From: Oliverocinquevirus OLIVR5
Lineage: Duplodnaviria; Heunggongvirae; Uroviricota; Caudoviricetes
Length of the DNA stretch: 64,000 bases
IMG/VR virus record: IMGVR_UViG_2974725113_000001
Coordinates: 87,074-151,073 of that record
Reading direction: 5' to 3' (one strand)
Within the stretch, counting starts at the first letter, position 1, and each line of letters starts with the position of its first letter. Under the pieces are notes generated by a model. The model saw only the letters and a list, made by a program, of their open reading frames with translations. It had not been told where the DNA came from and did not search any database. A program made the translations under genes and the position numbers. This document shows, in pieces, positions 1 through 7,293 of this stretch.

Positions 1-98
1 GAAGCAGGAAAATTCAATTTCCAGGAGACGAAGGATATCTTGACAGATATCAGTGTTTCTGCTCTCGAATGCAACGCCGATCCTGACAATGGTCGTAT

Positions 99-398
99 GT
101 GGATCGAAAACTGGAAATTCGAAAGGGTCCAGAAATGAAGATGATTGATAAAACCTCAAAAGTTTTCATAGTATCTGCGGTAACAACCGATGACGAAGAC
201 AAAGTCTATTCAATCGGAAAGCGGACTCCTCGTTTCCATTTTAATGGAACGAGTCTTCGGATGACTAACATCGACAAAGCAGAGAGGCTTACATTCGATG
301 ACGCCTGGGCAACGCTCAAGGTCATCCAAATGAAACACGAACAAGGCGATATCCTCTGGATCAAAGATTGGAAAATGGAGAGAGTCAATGACGTATGA
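99..398 (+). CDS. hypothetical protein
   Basis: 99-aa ORF codirectional with downstream genes; its 3' end overlaps the next start; no recognisable motif. Confidence 0.35.
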   Translation: MDRKLEIRKGPEMKMIDKTSKVFIVSAVTTDDEDKVYSIGKRTPRFHFNGTSLRMTNIDKAERLTFDDAWATLKVIQMKHEQGDILWIKDWKMERVNDV

Positions 399-915
399 AC
401 ATAAAGCTGTAGAATTCCTCGACGAACGAAATGCTCTCACTAAAGAGAAGCTCGCCAATCTTCGGAAGCTCGCCGATTATCTTTATGAGAAAGGTGAGCT
501 CCTTGAAGATTTCGACATGGGCACATATAACGTCGATTATCAGGTGAAGCCTCATGCTCTGAATACCGAAAACGAGTGCGGAACAGCAGGATGTGCAGTG
601 GGTCATGGCCCATTCGCCGGGATAAAAGCTCTTCGAAATGAAGACTGGGTTGGATATTTCGAACGCGTCTTTATCGACGACTCGAGTTCTATCCTTTTTG
701 ACTGGCTTTTCACGGGTTCCTGGGAAACGATCGATAACTCTCCAATCGGTGCCGCAAAGAGGATTTATATCTTCCTAGATGACCACGAGAAGATCGTCGA
801 CGTCCTAAAGGAAAAAGGCTATTTCTTCGATAGCGGATATCATGCCAATGGTGAATGGTATACCCATTTGACATTCGACTACGCCAGCCTTCTTCAGAAC
901 TTCAAAAGGAAATAA
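388..915 (+). CDS. hypothetical protein, paralog family A (copy 1)
   Basis: 175-aa ORF; shares conserved blocks (MxTYNxD, CGTxGCAxGxxPFAGI, W..., DNSxxGAAxRI) with ORF 1211..1732, so the two are tandem paralogs. Confidence 0.6.
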   Translation: MTYEHKAVEFLDERNALTKEKLANLRKLADYLYEKGELLEDFDMGTYNVDYQVKPHALNTENECGTAGCAVGHGPFAGIKALRNEDWVGYFERVFIDDSSSILFDWLFTGSWETIDNSPIGAAKRIYIFLDDHEKIVDVLKEKGYFFDSGYHANGEWYTHLTFDYASLLQNFKRK

Positions 916-1149
916 CTCTTGTTTTATCTCGCACTAGCACTTGCTTCTGTTCCACTTCTTCTGGCACTCCTCGTTCCTCTCAAGTTCACCTTGATGATCA
1001 TCAGCCACAAAGAGACGAGTATCGTCTTTAAGATTTACATCTGCATCCTGATGCTTCTGACTACGATTATGGGCGGAGACCTCTATGTCAAGTACTTCGC
1101 CAATGACGTTCTCAACTTCATTCTTTTCCTCTTTTCTGGCATTTAATCG

Positions 1150-1178
1150 TTTACAAACGAGAATTTGTTAGATACGGT
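1150..1178 (+). promoter_or_regulatory. early-type promoter candidate (TTTACA-N17-TACGGT)
   Basis: TTTACA -35-like hexamer, 17-nt spacer, TAnnnT -10-like; lies between the two paralogs upstream of an AAAGGAAAA Shine-Dalgarno and the ATG at 1211. Confidence 0.35.
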
Positions 1179-1210
1179 AATCTCAACTTAAACCTTAAAA
1201 GGAAAATACG

Positions 1211-1732
1211 ATGTCATACGATCCTGAAAGACTTACGCCTATTGAGGTCTTCGAAAATATCACGAACGAGTCTCGAGAAAATCTCAAGATGCTTTCGGCT
1301 TTTCTGAAAGCTAATGCGAATGCCCTCAAATTCGATATGACCACTTACAACGGCGACGAATTATTGCCTAATCAACTCGATACGAGTAATCATTGTGGAA
1401 CAGTTGGATGCGCACTCGGATTCGCTCCTTTTGCAGGAATTCCTTTTGATGAAGGAGACTCCTGGCCTTCATATTCCAAGAGGTTCTCAAAGATCGACAA
1501 TCCTGAATACAAAATCCCAGGCGATTTCATTTACGATTGGTGTTTCTCCTGCGATTGGGAACACATTGACAATTCTGCCCTCGGCGCCGCAAGACGGATC
1601 GACGATCTCCTCGAACGTCCACAGTATGTGGCAGACCATTTTGTCGAAAATGGCGTATTCTATAGGCTTTTTGCCTGGGACGCTCAGAATGCGGTAAATG
1701 TTCTCGCTATTCATCGTAAAGATGAAGACTGA
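1211..1732 (+). CDS. hypothetical protein, paralog family A (copy 2)
   Basis: 173-aa ORF preceded by RBS AAAGGAAAA; same motif blocks as 388..915 (CGTVGCALGFAPFAGI, DNSALGAARRI). Confidence 0.6.
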   Translation: MSYDPERLTPIEVFENITNESRENLKMLSAFLKANANALKFDMTTYNGDELLPNQLDTSNHCGTVGCALGFAPFAGIPFDEGDSWPSYSKRFSKIDNPEYKIPGDFIYDWCFSCDWEHIDNSALGAARRIDDLLERPQYVADHFVENGVFYRLFAWDAQNAVNVLAIHRKDED

Positions 1733-1989
1733 TGAAGTTCATCATCCACGTGAACCGAGGTCATATCGGTAGCAATGCCAAGGATGGTGGAAATCGTCCT
1801 GTCTACACCATCAAGGAAAGAGGCAGGACGAAGCCCAGGTACGCTCGAGAGGTTCACATTGATGGACCATCGAAACTCATTTACGACGGACGCCAGCTCT
1901 CATGTGGTGCCCGTGCATGGATAGAAACTGAAGGTCCTCTAAATCTAATTGATGAGATGGACTATGAACAAGCAAGGAAGTTTCAGTAA
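1732..1989 (+). CDS. hypothetical protein
   Basis: 85-aa ORF with ATGA stop/start overlap to the upstream gene; basic. Confidence 0.4.
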   Translation: MKFIIHVNRGHIGSNAKDGGNRPVYTIKERGRTKPRYAREVHIDGPSKLIYDGRQLSCGARAWIETEGPLNLIDEMDYEQARKFQ

Positions 1990-2288
1990 TGTGGCATATC
2001 GAATACGAAGCTGAAGTGCATTCTCGAGTCAATCGATATTTCCGTTCGATTACGACTTGCCGCTTCTCCACAGACGATCCTTATCTTTGGTGGTGCTACG
2101 ATAAGAAAAAGTTCGTTCCTATTGAAGAGACGAGCGGACAATATTCGAACCATAGCGAAGGTCCGAGGACGATCAAGGCTTTCAAGCGATTTCTTCGAAA
2201 GCATCCGGAGCTCAAAGGCTATGAGGTCATCTTTGTGAACCGATACGCAGGTCTTGGAGCTACTGCAGTCTGGATTGAAGAAAAATAA
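1989..2288 (+). CDS. hypothetical protein
   Basis: 99-aa ORF with start/stop overlap to the upstream gene. Confidence 0.4.
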   Translation: MWHIEYEAEVHSRVNRYFRSITTCRFSTDDPYLWWCYDKKKFVPIEETSGQYSNHSEGPRTIKAFKRFLRKHPELKGYEVIFVNRYAGLGATAVWIEEK

Positions 2289-2311
2289 TTCGATCTCTCG
2301 TCATTTTCTTG

Positions 2312-2340
2312 TTTACATCAAGGTTTAAGTGTTGTAGAAA
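2312..2340 (+). promoter_or_regulatory. early-type promoter (TTTACA-N17-TAGAAA)
   Basis: TTTACA followed by conserved spacer tcAAGGTTTAAGtg; a GGAG Shine-Dalgarno and the ATG at 2382 lie downstream. Confidence 0.45.
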
Positions 2341-2381
2341 TAATTCATCAACAACACAACAACCTCTACGGAGACAAGACA

Positions 2382-2777
2382 ATGACCGAGAACAAATCCA
2401 AGATCATCGTATCCTACCCTGCATACACGATCATCTCTCCGGCTCATAACAAACTTCGCCACGGTGAGTCTATCATGGTAGAATTCGATGCTATCCGTGG
2501 TGGAAAACTCTGGAGAGAATTCTGTGTTGGTACAGTCGCTTCTTACGCCATTGAATATTTCGAATGTCCGATCAAGGCAGTAGAACGTGCAAAGGCAAAT
2601 GGCCACGAACTCCACTATGCATTCGGATGTGGTGCAACGATCACCTCCCACAAACGTGACCACGAATTCAAGAAAGGTTTCCGATTCGGAGATGAAATCA
2701 TCCTCGAAGGTTACGTCTTCGAAATCGTCAAAGCTCCGAACTCCAACATCGCCCTGAAAATGGTTCGTGAAGCTTAA
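2382..2777 (+). CDS. hypothetical protein
   Basis: 131-aa ORF with GGAG RBS 8 nt upstream; downstream of an early-type promoter. Confidence 0.5.
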   Translation: MTENKSKIIVSYPAYTIISPAHNKLRHGESIMVEFDAIRGGKLWREFCVGTVASYAIEYFECPIKAVERAKANGHELHYAFGCGATITSHKRDHEFKKGFRFGDEIILEGYVFEIVKAPNSNIALKMVREA

Positions 2778-2919
2778 TTCCAACGAGGTGGACAGAAATG
2801 TCCACCTCCTTCCATGGAGAATAAAATGGAAATCTTTCTTCAAATCTCCCTCACCATCCTCTTCGGTTCCTTCTTCTTTGGCTTGAGCTTGCTCGCCCTC
2901 ACCAAGCAGGAACTCTGAA

Positions 2920-3141
2920 ATGTCAATTTCAATCGCAAGTCTTTTTCTCCTTTCGGCACTCTCATCCGGTCAAGTTGAGAAAGAGGTTGAAGCGAAATTC
3001 GAATATCGATCTGAAGAACATTGTCTCCTGATCATATCGATCGTCGAAGAAGAACTCAGGATCAACAAACTCCTCGGAAACATCAGCGATAAGGCTGTCG
3101 TTTTCGAATGTGGAAAAATCAAGAAGGTGATAAAGCAATGA
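2920..3141 (+). CDS. hypothetical small protein
   Basis: 73-aa ORF with N-terminal hydrophobic segment; ATGA overlap with the next gene. Confidence 0.3.
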   Translation: MSISIASLFLLSALSSGQVEKEVEAKFEYRSEEHCLLIISIVEEELRINKLLGNISDKAVVFECGKIKKVIKQ

Positions 3142-3677
3142 CACGATCTCCGAAGCTTGAAATGAAGGCAATGCTTTTCGCAGCAGATGCTCACGAGAAC
3201 CAGGTCCGGAAGTACACTGGCGAACCTTACATCCGTCATCCGATCGAGGTTACTTCTATCCTCTCGACGTATTTTCCAGATGACTCTATCATCCTGGCTG
3301 CTGCAGCTCTCCATGACGTTATCGAAGATTGTGGTGTGATTCGAGAAACACTCGAAGATGTTTTCGGCCACGAAGTTGCTCATCTCGTCGACGAGGTCTC
3401 TGACAAGTTCTCCGATCCTGTCCACGGCAATCGTGCAAAGAGGAAGGCTCTCGAAGCTCATCGCCTCTCACATTGCTCTATCCGAGCCCAGAACATCAAG
3501 CTCGCAGATTTCCTCTCGAATTTTCCTTCGATCCTTTTCCACGACGAGTCTTTCGCTAAGCTCTACGCTAAGGAAAAGAGATACCTCATTAACCTCATCG
3601 ATCCGAAGGTTAATCCTCTCCTTCTGACTCGCGTGAAGAATATGATCGAAGATGCAGAAAAGCGGTTTACAAACTAA
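3138..3677 (+). CDS. HD-domain (p)ppGpp hydrolase, SpoT/RelA N-terminal hydrolase-like (Mesh1-type small alarmone hydrolase)
   Basis: Matches the SpoT hydrolase domain: AADAHxxQxRKxxGEPYIxHPxEV, AAALHDVIEDCG, LVDEVSDK, RAKRK...EAHR, IKLADxLSN. The in-frame ATG at 3138 has RBS GAAGGTGA; the track start at 3108 is upstream. Confidence 0.7.
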   Translation: MTRSPKLEMKAMLFAADAHENQVRKYTGEPYIRHPIEVTSILSTYFPDDSIILAAAALHDVIEDCGVIRETLEDVFGHEVAHLVDEVSDKFSDPVHGNRAKRKALEAHRLSHCSIRAQNIKLADFLSNFPSILFHDESFAKLYAKEKRYLINLIDPKVNPLLLTRVKNMIEDAEKRFTN

Positions 3678-3694
3678 TCCTTCTGGTCTATAAA
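3666..3694 (+). promoter_or_regulatory. sigma70-like early promoter (TTTACA-N17-TATAAA)
   Basis: Near-consensus hexamers at 17-nt spacing, overlapping the stop of the hydrolase gene and upstream of 3726. Confidence 0.5.
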
Positions 3695-3725
3695 GAAATC
3701 CCAAGCATGAAACAAGGAATTCGTA

Positions 3726-4292
3726 ATGCATAACTACATCACCATCCGCAACAACTTCCTCCGTCACGTTGAAAAGAATGTTCGCGGAATTCCTTTTGAC
3801 CAGAAGGTTACTTACGTCAAGGAAAACTTCAATTCTCTCTTCGCGTCTTTCGAACAGAAGAGCTTCTTGAACTCCAACGCTGCAATCCTCCTCAAGCAGA
3901 AGACCGTTCTCGAATTCCGCACTCTCGAACGGAAGGTGACTGAAGACATCGCGAAGCATCAGGAACAGATCGACCTCACTCGACGCATGGATATCATTCG
4001 TGCATCCGATCGTGAAGACATCAAGAAGCGCGAAGATCGAATTGCGTACCTGAAGTTTAAGTACAATGCGAAGACCACCCAAGTTGATCGCGATTTCATT
4101 CCTGGAGAATTCTTCGACGAGAAGACCAGGTCGCTGAATATTTTCAAAAAGGATATTCACAATGCCGTAGAAACACGGTATAAAATAGATAAGATCGCCG
4201 ACAGCTTCTTCATTTATCCAGAAAAGGAAAAGATCGAAGAAGAGACGAATGAAATTGTCAATGTCGTTGAGTCCCGCTACTATCGAGCGTAA
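3726..4292 (+). CDS. hypothetical protein
   Basis: 188-aa ORF immediately upstream of the gp32-like gene; no motif recognised. Confidence 0.45.
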   Translation: MHNYITIRNNFLRHVEKNVRGIPFDQKVTYVKENFNSLFASFEQKSFLNSNAAILLKQKTVLEFRTLERKVTEDIAKHQEQIDLTRRMDIIRASDREDIKKREDRIAYLKFKYNAKTTQVDRDFIPGEFFDEKTRSLNIFKKDIHNAVETRYKIDKIADSFFIYPEKEKIEEETNEIVNVVESRYYRA

Positions 4293-4352
4293 TCGGTAGA
4301 ACACCAAAGAAACCCAAAACAGACTACCCCAGAAAAACCCAAGGAAATCCCA

Positions 4353-5312
4353 ATGTCTTTTGCAAGTCTCCGTGAACGCGCCAAGAATATCGAAGAAGTC
4401 CGTGATGAAGTCGCTCCTAACGAAGGTGAAGGTGGCGATCGTTATCTCCAGATTGGTATCGATAAGACCGGCGTAGCATATGTTCGTGGTCGTTTCATGC
4501 CAGCTCCCGACGGCGAGCGCTCCTCGATCGTCACGTCCGAACGTTTCAAGTTCCAGAATGACTCTGGCACCAAGGAATACTACGGACTCTCCCTCCGAAA
4601 TCTCCCCGATCCTGACAATCCTTCCAAGCGCCAGCTTGATCCTGTTCAGCCTTACCTCGATGCTCTCTGGAAGGCAGGCGACAAGGACCTCTATCGCAAG
4701 CGCAAGAAGAAGACTCCGACCTACGTCAACTTCTACGTCGAAGAAGACAAGGTCAACCCGGAAAACAACGGCAAGGTTTTCCTTTGGCGTATTCCGTACG
4801 AAATCCACGACATGGTCAAGGTTGCACTGAAGCCTGTCGAAGACAAGTACGATCCGTCGAAGACTCCGAAAGCTTTCAATCCGTTCGACCTATTCGGCGA
4901 AGCAGGTGGTCGTGACTTCATTATCCGCATCAAGGATAAGGATGGCAAGAACGACTACAGCGGTTCTCATTTCGCTGACAAGCCGAATGCTTTCCTCGAC
5001 GGTGACGAAGAAAAGATGGAAGCAGCCTGGAAGTCCTGCCACTCGCTCTTCCACTTCGTTGATCCGTCTCGTCACAAGACTCGTGAAGAACTGATCAAGA
5101 TGCTGATCGACGTTGTTGGTCCTCGCGACAAGTATCTCTCGGAAATCTATCCGGAAGAGTGCGAAGAATTCCTCTCCAAGGGTCGTGGCTCTAAGTCTGA
5201 AGAGAAATCTGAAGGCAAGCGTGAAGAACGCGAGGAAAAGAAGTCAGAACCGAAGAAGGAAGAAAAAGCTCCGAAGTCTTCAGCTGCCGAAGACCTCGAC
5301 ATCGACTTCTAA
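4353..5312 (+). CDS. 32: ssDNA-binding protein, T4 gp32-like
   Basis: Block YVNFYVEEDKVNPENNGKVFLWRIPYEIHDMVKVAL matches T4 gp32 [37 protein letters not shown]; a Cys/His cluster follows (WKSCHSLFHF); the C-terminal tail is acidic (DLDIDF); 319 aa. Confidence 0.75.
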   Translation: MSFASLRERAKNIEEVRDEVAPNEGEGGDRYLQIGIDKTGVAYVRGRFMPAPDGERSSIVTSERFKFQNDSGTKEYYGLSLRNLPDPDNPSKRQLDPVQPYLDALWKAGDKDLYRKRKKKTPTYVNFYVEEDKVNPENNGKVFLWRIPYEIHDMVKVALKPVEDKYDPSKTPKAFNPFDLFGEAGGRDFIIRIKDKDGKNDYSGSHFADKPNAFLDGDEEKMEAAWKSCHSLFHFVDPSRHKTREELIKMLIDVVGPRDKYLSEIYPEECEEFLSKGRGSKSEEKSEGKREEREEKKSEPKKEEKAPKSSAAEDLDIDF

Positions 5313-5330
5313 GATTTCGAATTATCCCCT

Positions 5331-5358
5331 CCAAGGCCAGATTTTACTCTGGCCTTGG
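5331..5358. terminator. bidirectional stem-loop between convergent genes
   Basis: CCAAGGCCAGA-ttttac-TCTGGCCTTGG, an 11-bp perfect stem, preceded by ATCCCCTC as in the PeSL hairpins. Confidence 0.5.
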
Positions 5359-5364
5359 GTAGGG

Positions 5365-7293
5365 TTATGGCAGGACCATCATGCCGTTCACACCCATGTA
5401 ATCACGAGCGGAAACAGGATCACGGTCACGGACAGAAAGTCCGGAATCATAGTAAGCATTGTTCTCTACCTTTGTGGTCTTCACGGAGTTGACATTCGTA
5501 TTCGAAGCCTTGTCAAGAGCGGCAGCAAGAGAATCGTTAATGGCTGAAAACGCGGCTTCAGCATTAGCATTCTGAGATGCAGCATTCTCTCGAATCCTCG
5601 AAGAAGTTTCGATCGAAGACATTCGCTGGCCGATTCGTTCAGCGTACGAAGGACCTTCGGCGAACGGATTGAAATCAGAGAACGAAATCTCCTCATACAT
5701 TACAGAACCGAGGTTCTTCGCATAGTCGAAAGACTCCTTCAACTTGTTCTTCATCCCAGTGATGATGCTCGTGATAGTATCGGGAATTTCTTCCGTGAGC
5801 ATATTCATGAACGAATCCCAAGTCTCGGTGATCTTCGTCTCAACAATCCCGTAAGCGAGACCGCTCAACTTCTCCACATTGGACCACCATTTCTCGATAG
5901 GCTTAGCGATGTTCTCATCGTACGCACCGACGATAGAATCTACAGTGCCCATGAAAGCGGCTTCCACCCTCAATGCTGCGGCCGATGTCCAATTACTGAG
6001 AGCTCTTTCCTTCTCTGCAAACCATTGGACGACAGAGTTCGGAACGAGTGCAAGAAGAGCACGGTCCATGGAGCTCGAGACTTCTCCAGCCCAGTTACCG
6101 AATTTCTCGAAGAAGCTGGCATCAGCAAGAGCCATTTCCTTTTTGAAGCTTTCTTCCTTCTGTTGGATTTTCTCCAACTGCACTTTGCCATCGGCGATGA
6201 TCTTTTCGTTCGTGTTGATTTTCCTTCGAAGGATATCAGCAGTGGCGCTATTTCCAGACAATTCAGCCTGAGTCAACTGAACACGAAGTTCGGAGATTGC
6301 CAGGATGGATTTCTCAATAGCCTCGTTGATAGAAGAGGATTTCTTCTTCATATCGTCGATACGACCTTGGAGACGATCCTTGTCCGTGCCGAAGACAGAC
6401 TCAGCCAATTGATAAGTTCCGTCTACCATCGTGTCCAGAGCGCTCTGGATATAATCGCCGAATAGATAATCAACAGCGAGGGCTGCTGCTCCCAGGGCTG
6501 CTCCCACGGTGCCACCAGCAATGATCCCTGGAATTCCGAGAGGAAGACCAAGTGCTGCACCAGCTGCAGTCCATCGGCCGAGAGCATGGAACTTCGACAT
6601 GATATCGTTTTCCACACCTACGAGAAGAGCTTTGATGCCACCAGCAATTTGATTATCTCCGGACTCCGAAGCGTTCAGTGCACCCTTCGTGTAATCGGCG
6701 ATCGAGTATACGAGACCTTCGATAGCCGTGCCGATGATCGATACGAGAGCGATGCCTTTCAGAGCGATAGGAATGGCAGCCAGGATTCGAGTCTTCAGAC
6801 CCAAGAACATCGCCTTGAAGATTTCATCGGCAGACTTCTTAGGATTGACTTCTTCGACAGGATCAGAGGTCGGTTCTTGGAACTTCTCTTTTTCCTCTTT
6901 CTCCTGCTGGCGATTCTCCTTCTCGGTGTCCTTGAAGAATTGCTCGATCTTCTCAAGAGCGTCGACGGTCTCAGAAAAACCTTGCTCCGTCTTCTCCGTC
7001 AGGATTTCGAGCTGATCCTTCCTGCGAGGAGTATTCGTGGCCTTATGGAGAGCGTCACCAATCTTCCGTTGAGCAGCAGCGAATGCTTTCCCAACAGAGT
7101 TGATTTTCGCTGCGTCATAAAGAGTCATGAAGGGCTCTTTGAGCTGATCTAAGACCTGCTCACTTTTGCCCATCATGCTTTTCGCTACGGAGTCGAATTG
7201 GTCAGTGAGTTTCCTCACAGCCTTGTCGACTGTTTCCTGAACAACGCCGGCCACTTCCTTCTCGAAATTTGCGATCTTAGGAAGTGCTGCCAT
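5365..7293 (-). CDS. tape-measure-like protein (T4 gp29-like size), glycine-zipper hydrophobic core
   Basis: 642 aa; coiled-coil-prone N-terminal region; central Ala/Gly-rich hydrophobic segments (GAALGLPLGIPGIIAGGTVGAALGAAALAV); sits in a minus-strand tail/baseplate cluster beside a tube-family gene. Confidence 0.35.
   Translation of the reverse strand: MAALPKIANFEKEVAGVVQETVDKAVRKLTDQFDSVAKSMMGKSEQVLDQLKEPFMTLYDAAKINSVGKAFAAAQRKIGDALHKATNTPRRKDQLEILTEKTEQGFSETVDALEKIEQFFKDTEKENRQQEKEEKEKFQEPTSDPVEEVNPKKSADEIFKAMFLGLKTRILAAIPIALKGIALVSIIGTAIEGLVYSIADYTKGALNASESGDNQIAGGIKALLVGVENDIMSKFHALGRWTAAGAALGLPLGIPGIIAGGTVGAALGAAALAVDYLFGDYIQSALDTMVDGTYQLAESVFGTDKDRLQGRIDDMKKKSSSINEAIEKSILAISELRVQLTQAELSGNSATADILRRKINTNEKIIADGKVQLEKIQQKEESFKKEMALADASFFEKFGNWAGEVSSSMDRALLALVPNSVVQWFAEKERALSNWTSAAALRVEAAFMGTVDSIVGAYDENIAKPIEKWWSNVEKLSGLAYGIVETKITETWDSFMNMLTEEIPDTITSIITGMKNKLKESFDYAKNLGSVMYEEISFSDFNPFAEGPSYAERIGQRMSSIETSSRIRENAASQNANAEAAFSAINDSLAAALDKASNTNVNSVKTTKVENNAYYDSGLSVRDRDPVSARDYMGVNGMMVLP

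Follow-up and report, generated by a model that had tools for sequence, protein, structure and literature searches.

What does the short plus-strand reading frame at positions 3138 to 3677 of the window encode, and what might its product do for a phage growing in Agrobacterium? Phage alarmone hydrolases are a recognised class, still poorly understood, that neutralise toxic alarmone synthetases on co-expression. OLIVR5, a lytic phage, is a candidate for the biocontrol of rhizogenic Agrobacterium. How well it works in hydroponic water poor in nutrients could be affected by a gene that manipulates the host's starvation signals or the toxins of abortive infection; the OLIVR phage paper makes no mention of this one. 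The window, the whole 64,000-nt stretch analysed, is the final 64 kb of Agrobacterium phage OLIVR5, at 100% identity. We consider it very probable that the gene encodes a small alarmone hydrolase (SAH) of the RelA/SpoT-homologue (RSH) family, a stand-alone protein that would be catalytically competent and that most resembles the PaSpo type of Salmonella phage SSU5.

The reading frame itself is real: the ORF list and the sequence place it exactly at 3138 to 3677 on the plus strand, with 179 amino acids and a stop codon, and it carries every block from which the original prediction had recognised a SpoT/Mesh1-type hydrolase, namely HDVIEDCG (residues 59–66, nt 3312–3335), LVDEVSDK (83–90), RAKRK (99–103), EAHR (106–109) and IKLADFLSN (120–128, nt 3495–3521). 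Pfam reports HD_4 and HD alone for this single RSH-type HD domain; HD_4 (PF13328) matches residues 11–132 with an E-value of 2.5e-16 and 60.2 bits, well above the gathering score of 27.2 bits. The match to TIGR00691 (spoT_relA) is confined to model positions 1–159 of 687, that is, the hydrolase half, and its score lies far under the full-length cut-off. The proposed collinearity with the hydrolase half of SpoT/RelA is thus borne out by both profiles, and the synthetase domain is absent from the 179 residues, as had been claimed. The protein falls in PHROG 990 (E 1.8e-35), and in the PDB the best sequence matches come from the N-terminal domains of Rel and from Mesh1 (E 4e-17 to 4e-15), together with bacterial SAHs. 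Judged by such scores the resemblance to RSH hydrolases is far beyond chance; on sequence evidence the OLIVR5 protein is a further phage small alarmone hydrolase, similar phage enzymes having already been studied.

The deposited annotation gives a different account of the locus. In the GenBank feature table the gene is an antisense shadow ORF of 163 aa, gp154c (2970–3461, minus strand), with the product name "bifunctional (p)ppGpp synthetase/...hydrolase". That gp154c is the true gene and the plus-strand ORF a by-product is what the annotation deposited for both OLIVR5 and OLIVR6 implies, and we give this next to no credence. Pfam matches nothing in the minus-strand product, whereas a complete HD_4 domain, homologues and a fold predicted with confidence all belong to the plus-strand product, and the plus strand is the one annotated in three related genomes (IC12, IG49 and LG08). 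Substitution patterns by codon position argue the same way: the adjacent miscalled gp155c has 37/0/5 substitutions at codon positions 1/2/3, with 13–23 nonsynonymous against 1–3 synonymous changes, whereas the plus-frame ORFs set against it show 0/0/20 and 2/2/29. On these data the minus-strand GenBank gene models were rejected. In the SAH gene, the catalytic half is almost invariant across four Heverleevirus genomes, none of which introduces a stop codon; its 13 variable sites in these genomes (5/0/8 by codon position) yield a weak selection signal from this ORF alone. The GenBank product name was rejected as well, since the synthetase domain is absent. The hydrolase domain of long Rel/SpoT enzymes (B. 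subtilis Rel, 8acu; M. tuberculosis Rel, 5xnx; RelSeq, 1vj7) gives the best sequence matches (E 4e-17 to 2e-14), is collinear with the OLIVR5 protein over residues 10–179 and has the same catalytic motifs; yet, unlike those enzymes, the OLIVR5 protein is without synthetase, TGS and ACT regions, and thus without reciprocal regulation, so that the "bifunctional" label is wrong. The GenBank/RefSeq records of OLIVR5 and OLIVR6 place the hydrolase and the gp32-type SSB on antisense ORFs, besides mislabelling the former, and the practical outcome is an annotation correction for both genes in these records. In record coordinates the corrected plus-strand coding sequences are 90211–90750 (hydrolase), 90799–91365 (a 188-aa ORF) and 91426–92385 (SSB).

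Two ATG codons could open the plus-strand gene. The one at 3138 lies 6 nt downstream of a Shine-Dalgarno-like AGGTGAT (3125–3131, plus strand, read from the sequence) and overlaps, as ATGA, the stop codon of a 73-aa ORF (2920–3141, plus strand), which the annotations of IC12, IG49 and LG08 place on this strand as well. The alternative at 3108 is the annotated start in these same related phages; it is without a comparable Shine-Dalgarno-like site, and the 10 extra residues that it would add are without counterpart in homologues. Given the AGGTGAT spacing, the ATGA overlap and the homologues, which lack those residues, we prefer 3138. The 73-aa ORF, for which Pfam and PHROG searches gave no match, probably shares a transcript with the SAH gene, and translation of the two is probably coupled. 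Owing to the ATGA overlap, a promoter has to be located upstream of 2920. The near-consensus promoter that had been placed in front of the gene was not recovered: a sigma-70 scan of positions 1–5600 returned 12 matches against 6.0 ± 3.2 expected, none of them on the plus strand within the 650 nt that precede the SAH gene, and between 2484 and 3264 that strand has no match of at least 9/12. The best candidate by eye, TTTACA-17-TAGAAA at about 2313–2341, upstream of gp152, is weak and was rejected as not near-consensus. The gene is one of a run of small plus-strand genes, the last of them coding for the gp32-type SSB; this place hints at early-gene status, and expression would occur within that run.

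The key residues of the six RSH hydrolase motifs, placed by HMMER alignment to Rel and Mesh1 with motif definitions from PMC9293644, are all present on the plus strand and are invariant in 33 family members. HD1 is represented by Arg24 (3207–3209), the base-stacking residue, in the place of RelSeq R44 and Mesh1 R24; HD2 by His34 (3237–3239) and HD3 by His59-Asp60 (3312–3317), all predicted Mn2+ ligands; HD4 by Glu63-Asp64 (3324–3329), proposed as the pair behind the nucleophilic attack; HD5 by Asp124, another predicted Mn2+ ligand, followed by Phe125 and not by the usual Lys/Arg (3507–3512); and HD6 by Asn128 (3519–3521). Ser131 (3528–3530) occupies the position of RelSeq T151. The Mn-binding His and Asp residues of Mesh1, which the original prediction had singled out as the point to verify, are conserved when aligned residue by residue with Mesh1 and Rel; its identity call was right, the product being a phage hydrolase-only SpoT/Mesh1-type (RSH) HD protein with metal and catalytic ligands all intact. 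An Asp-hydrophobic HD5, which may bear on activity or specificity, is a known variant among SAHs (PMC9293644); Asp-Leu is found in both SSU5 PaSpo and the SSE121 SAH, and PaSpo works in vivo. The AlphaFold (AF2) model (pLDDT 96.5, pTM 0.91, ten helices) predicts an all-helical Mesh1/RelH-like fold. Foldseek ranks Drosophila and human Mesh1 first (TM 0.84, rmsd 1.8–2.7 Å over the whole length), followed by PaSAH (TM 0.78) and RelH-Cg (TM 0.84).

Among the characterised SAHs compared, PaSpo of phage SSU5 (SSU5_099) gave the best score (37% identity over 148 aa, 85.9 bits, E 8e-26). Both proteins are phage-encoded hydrolase-only RSH HD proteins in PHROG 990, both combine an HD1 Arg with an Asp-hydrophobic HD5, and they have in common the blocks RKYTGExY(I)xHP, LHDVxED, GNRxxR, IKLAD[FL]xxNxxSI and F..IY..EK. 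PaSpo differs in its length (213 aa), with a longer C-terminus, and in its setting, a temperate phage-plasmid of Enterobacteria, whereas OLIVR5 is a 151-kb lytic Agrobacterium myovirus; neutralisation of toxic small alarmone synthetases (toxSAS) was shown in vivo for PaSpo, whereas the OLIVR5 protein is known here from sequence and predicted structure. Pairwise scores and shared motif signatures make the OLIVR5 protein a candidate member of the PaSpo subfamily in the classification of Jimmy et al. (2020).

The PbcSpo-type SAH of Salmonella phage PVP-SE1, examined through its relative SSE121, is likewise a stand-alone phage SAH in PHROG 990, and the PVP-SE1 enzyme neutralises toxSAS (PMC7229694). 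The SSE121 protein aligns with the OLIVR5 protein over the N-terminal 65 aa alone (45% identity, 45.8 bits) and has Asp, not Arg, at HD1 (NQKDKGGNPY), like the (p)ppApp-type signature; as just the N-terminal third aligns with this PVP-SE1-like protein, PbcSpo membership was rejected. The prophage-associated Aph1 (PDB 7smg), a (p)ppApp-specific hydrolase, has the HD fold in common with the OLIVR5 protein; similarity is weak, both in sequence (E 1.9e-5 over residues 1–84) and in structure (TM just 0.59 to the model). The signature of Aph1 consists of Asp at HD1 plus D116, R119, K133 and Y134, with D116 and R119 two and five residues past the HD6 Asn. At the HD1, D116 and R119 places the OLIVR5 protein has Arg24, Pro130 and Leu133, and Aph1-type (p)ppApp specificity was rejected; its HD1 Arg is like that of (p)ppGpp-hydrolysing enzymes.

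Mesh1 (MESH1, HDDC3; PDB 3nqw, 3nr1, 5vxa) has the same size and single-domain architecture and is about 30% identical to the OLIVR5 protein, with some 59–61 bits by phmmer, on a score scale that differs from that of the 85.9 bits of PaSpo. Its HD1–HD4 and HD6 residues and its HD5 Asp each have their counterpart in the OLIVR5 protein; the residue that follows this Asp differs, Mesh1 having Asp-Lys at HD5, as well as a longer loop past HD1. Mesh1 occurs in organisms without alarmone synthetases and is considered an NADPH phosphatase in vivo. The phage protein could, in the same manner, be a non-alarmone phosphatase that converts NADPH to NADH, or acts on a 3'-phosphoadenosine compound, and so remodels host redox or cofactor pools. 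The structural matches at TM 0.84 include human MESH1 with NADPH (5vxa) and with PAPS (9chy), and a bacterial orphan SAH is reported to be metabolically promiscuous (PMC9765508); yet the active site is common to enzymes that all hydrolyse alarmones, these substrates are made by bacteria and not by metazoans, and a search for a phage precedent found none, so that such a role strikes us as very improbable.

On the preferred reading, an alarmone hydrolase of PaSpo type, the gene, its strand, domain, motifs, predicted fold and relatives come from the data; what the enzyme does, on which substrates, when it is made and how the phage gains from it, we infer. By homology to Rel, Mesh1 and RelH, H34, H59, D60 and D124 would hold an Mn2+ ion and, likewise by homology, E63 and D64 would activate the attack on the 3'-pyrophosphate ester, with the purine base held by R24, N128 and S131; hydrolysis would yield the 5'-nucleotide plus pyrophosphate. 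In an infected Agrobacterium cell the enzyme would hold down the level of 3'-pyrophosphorylated nucleotides, and with less (p)ppGpp the stringent response would be dampened. What toxic alarmone synthetases make, namely (pp)pApp and tRNA pyrophosphorylated at its 3' end, may, if PaSpo is a guide, be substrates too; candidate substrates in infection are (p)ppGpp, (p)ppApp and pyrophosphorylated tRNA.

Whether the stringent response is the sole target can be weighed from the binding pocket and from what related enzymes do. The base-binding set of Arg24, Lys25, Asn128 and Ser131 is that of (p)ppGpp hydrolases, and Mesh1 and the Rel hydrolase domains are the nearest in fold as well as in sequence. 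This is consistent with the main reading of the original prediction, a dedicated breaker of the stringent response that acts on host (p)ppGpp only and restores rRNA, nucleotide and DNA synthesis during infection. We find such exclusivity somewhat doubtful. SAHs are promiscuous, and Arg-type members such as Mesh1 hydrolyse (p)ppApp, NADPH and pyrophosphorylated tRNA as well; PaSpo, the closest tested relative, was characterised as a toxSAS neutraliser and not as a modulator of the stringent response; and the literature searched shows no phage SAH lowering ppGpp during infection.

The tests on PaSpo point towards defence. This enzyme, 37% identical and with the same motifs, neutralises all five toxSAS toxins tested, tRNA-modifying ones included (PMC7229694), in a study that already proposed a counter-defence role for phage SAHs; by analogy, its results agree with the earlier suggestion that the OLIVR5 gene might counter alarmone-based defence. 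PaSpo is also reported to strip the tRNA modification made by FaRel2 and is in routine use to detoxify CapRel-SJ46 and FaRel2, while Mesh1 and ATfaRel restore the aminoacylation of pyrophosphorylated tRNA in vitro. We therefore entertain, tentatively, a primary role in counter-defence, in which the protein would reverse toxic small alarmone synthetases of CapRel, PhRel or FaRel type, whether of the host or of a prophage; the route, for which our confidence is equally guarded, would be (pp)pApp hydrolysis together with removal of the 3'-pyrophosphate from tRNA CCA ends. The literature searched, however, shows no phage SAH rescuing a phage from toxSAS in real infection, nor any phage alarmone hydrolase changing alarmone levels or beating defence there. 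Scanned with PADLOC, the SAH and the two genes beside it gave no match, although the PADLOC library is one of defence, not anti-defence, proteins, and the 64-kb window has no tRNA genes that would hint at tRNA-directed counter-defence. A stronger form of the idea, which we regard as unlikely, is that the PaSpo-like clade, marked by a retained HD1 Arg, a change of the HD5 Lys/Arg to a hydrophobic residue and invariant RKYTGEPY and GNRxxRK blocks, is specialised in removing pyrophosphate from RNA 3' ends, in this way rescuing tRNA from CapRel- or FaRel2-type toxSAS immunity, and is not an alarmone hydrolase; the OLIVR5 copy would then be a dedicated anti-defence gene against toxSAS systems in Agrobacterium.

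Homologues of the SAH occur in 359 of 50,697 phage records, and the nearest ones outside the phage's own genus are on phage-like contigs, among small genes. No conserved partner gene emerged: the neighbours differ among DLP_6, SSU5 and the metagenomic contigs, and the SAH thus looks like a stand-alone gene.

The phage OLIVR5 carries, on the plus strand at window positions 3138-3677, an intact gene whose product, a putative small alarmone hydrolase (SAH), combines a complete RelA/SpoT homologue (RSH) hydrolase active site with a Mesh1-like predicted fold. The open reading frame (ORF), 179 codons and a stop, is exactly where the original prediction had placed it, and the motif blocks then quoted are all found, in the order given. 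The Pfam search for an HD domain that had been called for returned HD_4 at 60.2 bits (E = 2.5e-16; gathering score 27.2), with the general HD model second and weaker. The protein belongs to PHROG 990, "metal-dependent phosphohydrolase" (E = 1.8e-35). Its alignment to NCBIfam TIGR00691 (spoT_relA) covers positions 1-159 of the 687 in the model only, and domain searches detected no synthetase domain, again as had been claimed. Among PDB sequences the top matches are the N-terminal catalytic regions of the Rel enzymes of B. subtilis, M. tuberculosis, and S. equisimilis, followed in turn by Mesh1 of Drosophila and human and by RelH and PaSAH, two bacterial SAHs; the match to the (p)ppApp hydrolase Aph1 is far weaker. 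At the level of sequence, the resemblance to RSH hydrolases is thus not a matter of chance. Two ATG codons, at 3108 and 3138, are candidate starts, and the annotations of the related phages IC12, LG08, and IG49 use the equivalent of the first, giving 189 aa. We favor 3138, as in the original prediction, because AGGTGAT (3125-3131) lies 6 nt 5' of it, because this ATG overlaps the TGA of a 73-aa ORF upstream (ATGA, 3138-3141), and because homologues begin within a few residues of it, leaving the ten extra residues without a counterpart.

The RSH hydrolase site has been defined by six motifs, HD1 to HD6: Arg, His, His-Asp, Glu-Asp, Asp followed by Arg or Lys, and Asn (PMC9293644). When the SAH is aligned by HMMER to Mesh1 of human and Drosophila and to three Rel enzymes, its R24, H34, H59-D60, E63-D64, D124, and N128 correspond to HD1 to HD6, and the His and Asp residues that bind Mn in Mesh1 are conserved. 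None of these residues varies between the SAH and 32 aligned homologues (32-49% identity). The sole departure from the six motifs is Phe125 after the HD5 Asp, where Lys or Arg is expected, an Asp-hydrophobic variant already recorded among SAHs (PMC9293644); Ser131 stands where RelSeq has T151, a feature also of RelH enzymes (PMC9293644). An Aph1-type specificity for (p)ppApp was also considered and rejected, since its signature of Asp at HD1, D116, and R119 (PMC10083569) is missing. The AlphaFold2 model, built from the 33-sequence alignment, has ten helices (mean pLDDT 96.5, pTM 0.91). Foldseek searches of the PDB matched it to Drosophila Mesh1 (3nqw, TM 0.84) and to human MESH1 (5vxa, 9chy, and 3nr1; TM 0.83-0.84, rmsd 1.8-2.0 Å, ~30% identity), then to the P. 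aeruginosa SAH and the RelH of C. glutamicum and L. levettii (TM 0.76-0.84), with the hydrolase domains of long Rel and SpoT forming the next tier and Aph1 reaching a TM of only ~0.59. Among predicted viral structures the top matches are HD proteins from many phages. Together, HD_4, the six motifs, and the predicted fold support the proposed phage-encoded Mesh1/SpoT-type hydrolase.

Two phage SAHs have been tested previously: the stand-alone enzymes of the Salmonella phages PVP-SE1 (PbcSpo subfamily) and SSU5 (PaSpo subfamily) each neutralize all five toxic small alarmone synthetases (toxSAS) examined, and it was proposed that phage SAHs serve to bypass alarmone-mediated defense (Jimmy et al. 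2020, PMC7229694). PaSpo (SSU5_099, taken from the SSU5 record) is the nearest to the OLIVR5 protein among characterized enzymes, with 37% identity over 148 aa (E = 8e-26) and the family's characteristic blocks in common, including the HD1 Arg and an Asp-hydrophobic HD5 (Asp-Leu in PaSpo). The PVP-SE1-like SAH of phage SSE121 aligns over the first 65 residues only and has Asp at HD1. PHROG 990 takes in all three proteins, and the OLIVR5 SAH is best described, from these comparisons, as PaSpo-like. Co-expression of PaSpo is a routine means to detoxify CapRel-SJ46 and FaRel2, and PaSpo is said to reverse FaRel2's modification of tRNA; Mesh1 and ATfaRel restored aminoacylation of pyrophosphorylated tRNA in vitro. 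In a Mn2+-dependent reaction, the OLIVR5 enzyme would strip (p)ppGpp, and probably (p)ppApp, of its 3'-pyrophosphate, and pyrophosphorylated tRNA may be a further substrate. Its HD1 Arg suggests that guanine nucleotides can be accepted, yet it does not point to them as the sole substrates, given the promiscuity of Arg-type SAHs such as Mesh1; in the same vein, the substrate preference of such an enzyme was called unpredictable in a 2025 paper on a phage genome (PMC12846349). The physiological role originally predicted is plausible: the enzyme could relieve the stringent response, counter toxSAS-based defense, or both, the two readings not being mutually exclusive. No study in the literature searched demonstrates either effect for a phage SAH during actual infection. 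Judged by sequence, the OLIVR5 protein is a putative new addition to a known and experimentally sampled class, the phage SAHs, and probably to those of PaSpo type.

Homologues are found in 359 of 50,697 phage records (tblastn, E ≤ 1e-3), including phiKZ-like and Erwinia jumbo phages, phages of Caulobacter, Rhizobium, Bradyrhizobium, and Ochrobactrum, and E. coli Sashaviruses; the nearest outside the genus in these records is that of Stenotrophomonas phage DLP_6 (48.7% identity). Their labels vary from phosphohydrolase to GTP pyrophosphokinase and ppGpp pyrophosphohydrolase. In a large protein collection, the nearest proteins outside Heverleevirus reach at most 54% identity, and each is 165-203 aa long with HD_4 as its one domain; one homologue, of 309 aa, has an N-terminal extension. 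Two of these proteins were traced to their contigs, which are phage-like (48 and 151 kb) and place the gene at the head of a run of small genes or within one. Gene neighbors differ among DLP_6, SSU5, metagenomic contigs, and OLIVR5, which argues for a stand-alone gene and not one half of a toxin-antitoxin pair.

Window positions 2000-6000 are 100% identical to 89073-93073 of the OLIVR5 record (MT234342.1/NC_055841.1, 151,073 bp; Pootjesviridae, Heverleevirus); subtracting 87,073 from a record coordinate gives the window coordinate, which makes the window the final 64 kb of that record. OLIVR6 shows no differences over this stretch and carries the same feature names, and identity to the Rhizobium phages IC12, LG08, and IG49 is 96.7-98.6%. 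In MT234342 it is gp154c, a minus-strand CDS (record 90043-90534, window 2970-3461), that bears the hydrolase label, [quoted passage not shown]. Likewise, "ssDNA binding protein" labels the minus-strand gp155c (3468-4808), followed by gp156, a truncated plus-strand single-stranded DNA-binding protein (SSB; 4812-5312). Neither minus-strand product matches Pfam, the plus-strand ORFs opposite them carry HD_4 and gp32, and IC12, IG49, and LG08 annotate these genes on the plus strand, so that gp154c and gp155c were rejected as real genes. Across the four genomes, substitutions at codon positions 1/2/3 number 5/0/8 in the SAH frame, nearly all in its C-terminal third, 0/0/20 in a 188-aa ORF (3726-4292, +), which is under strong purifying selection, and 2/2/29 in the SSB frame (4353-5312, +). 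In the minus-strand frame of gp155c they are 37/0/5, and there 13-23 codon changes are nonsynonymous and 1-3 synonymous. Substitution phase and the three related annotations thus support the plus strand, with gp153c (2840-2965, -), gp154c, and gp155c as calls antisense to real genes. The "bifunctional" label is itself wrong, since the SAH lacks a synthetase domain. Further upstream, OLIVR5 and IG49 annotate a plus-strand ORF (gp152, 2382-2777), whereas IC12 and LG08 annotate a minus-strand one (2325-2843); the plus-strand call is the better, given a phase of 9/8/32 against 35/9/11. This stretch is the most divergent of the region (92.9-96.6% identity).

The SAH gene lies within an unbroken plus-strand run that starts with small ORFs at the window start. 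It continues through gp152, a 34-aa hydrophobic ORF (MENKMEIFLQISLTILFGSFFFGLSLLALTKQEL; 2814-2918), which is annotated in IG49 and LG08 and replaced by the antisense gp153c in OLIVR5, and, directly 3' of it, the 73-aa ORF (2920-3141). Beyond the SAH gene come the 188-aa ORF, whose sole match is PHROG 33118 (unknown function) and for which no link to an SAH was found in other phages, and the 319-aa gp32-type SSB (Pfam gp32 E = 6e-16; PHROG 224 E = 2e-55), after which the run ends with a strand switch to baseplate genes. Such an arrangement would fit a replication-associated cluster of early or middle genes. The near-consensus promoter originally proposed was not confirmed, a plus-strand consensus scan of 2484-3264 yielding no site of at least 9/12; because the SAH gene overlaps the ORF before it, the two are probably co-transcribed from a point farther 5'. 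The gap after gp152 holds a perfect 8-bp hairpin, GGTGGACA-GAAA-TGTCCACC (2787-2806), in which all four loop bases (2795-2798) vary and both stems are constant among the four genomes. Having no T-run after it, it was not flagged by the terminator scan, and it could form a structure in the RNA, for instance a processing or attenuation site. Near the window start, two plus-strand genes (388-915, 175 aa; 1211-1732, 173 aa) are paralogous (36% identity, E = 5e-31), with the common blocks CGT[AV]GCA[VL]G..PFAGI and W..IDNS..GAA.RI; neither matches Pfam or PHROG. IG49 and LG08 are collinear with the window only from ~2302 onward, and upstream of that point they carry an opposite-strand HNH endonuclease gene (192-893 and 188-889 of their respective loci, L007 and L008) where OLIVR5 and IC12 have small genes of the gp150/gp151 type; this probably reflects insertion of, or replacement by, a mobile homing endonuclease.
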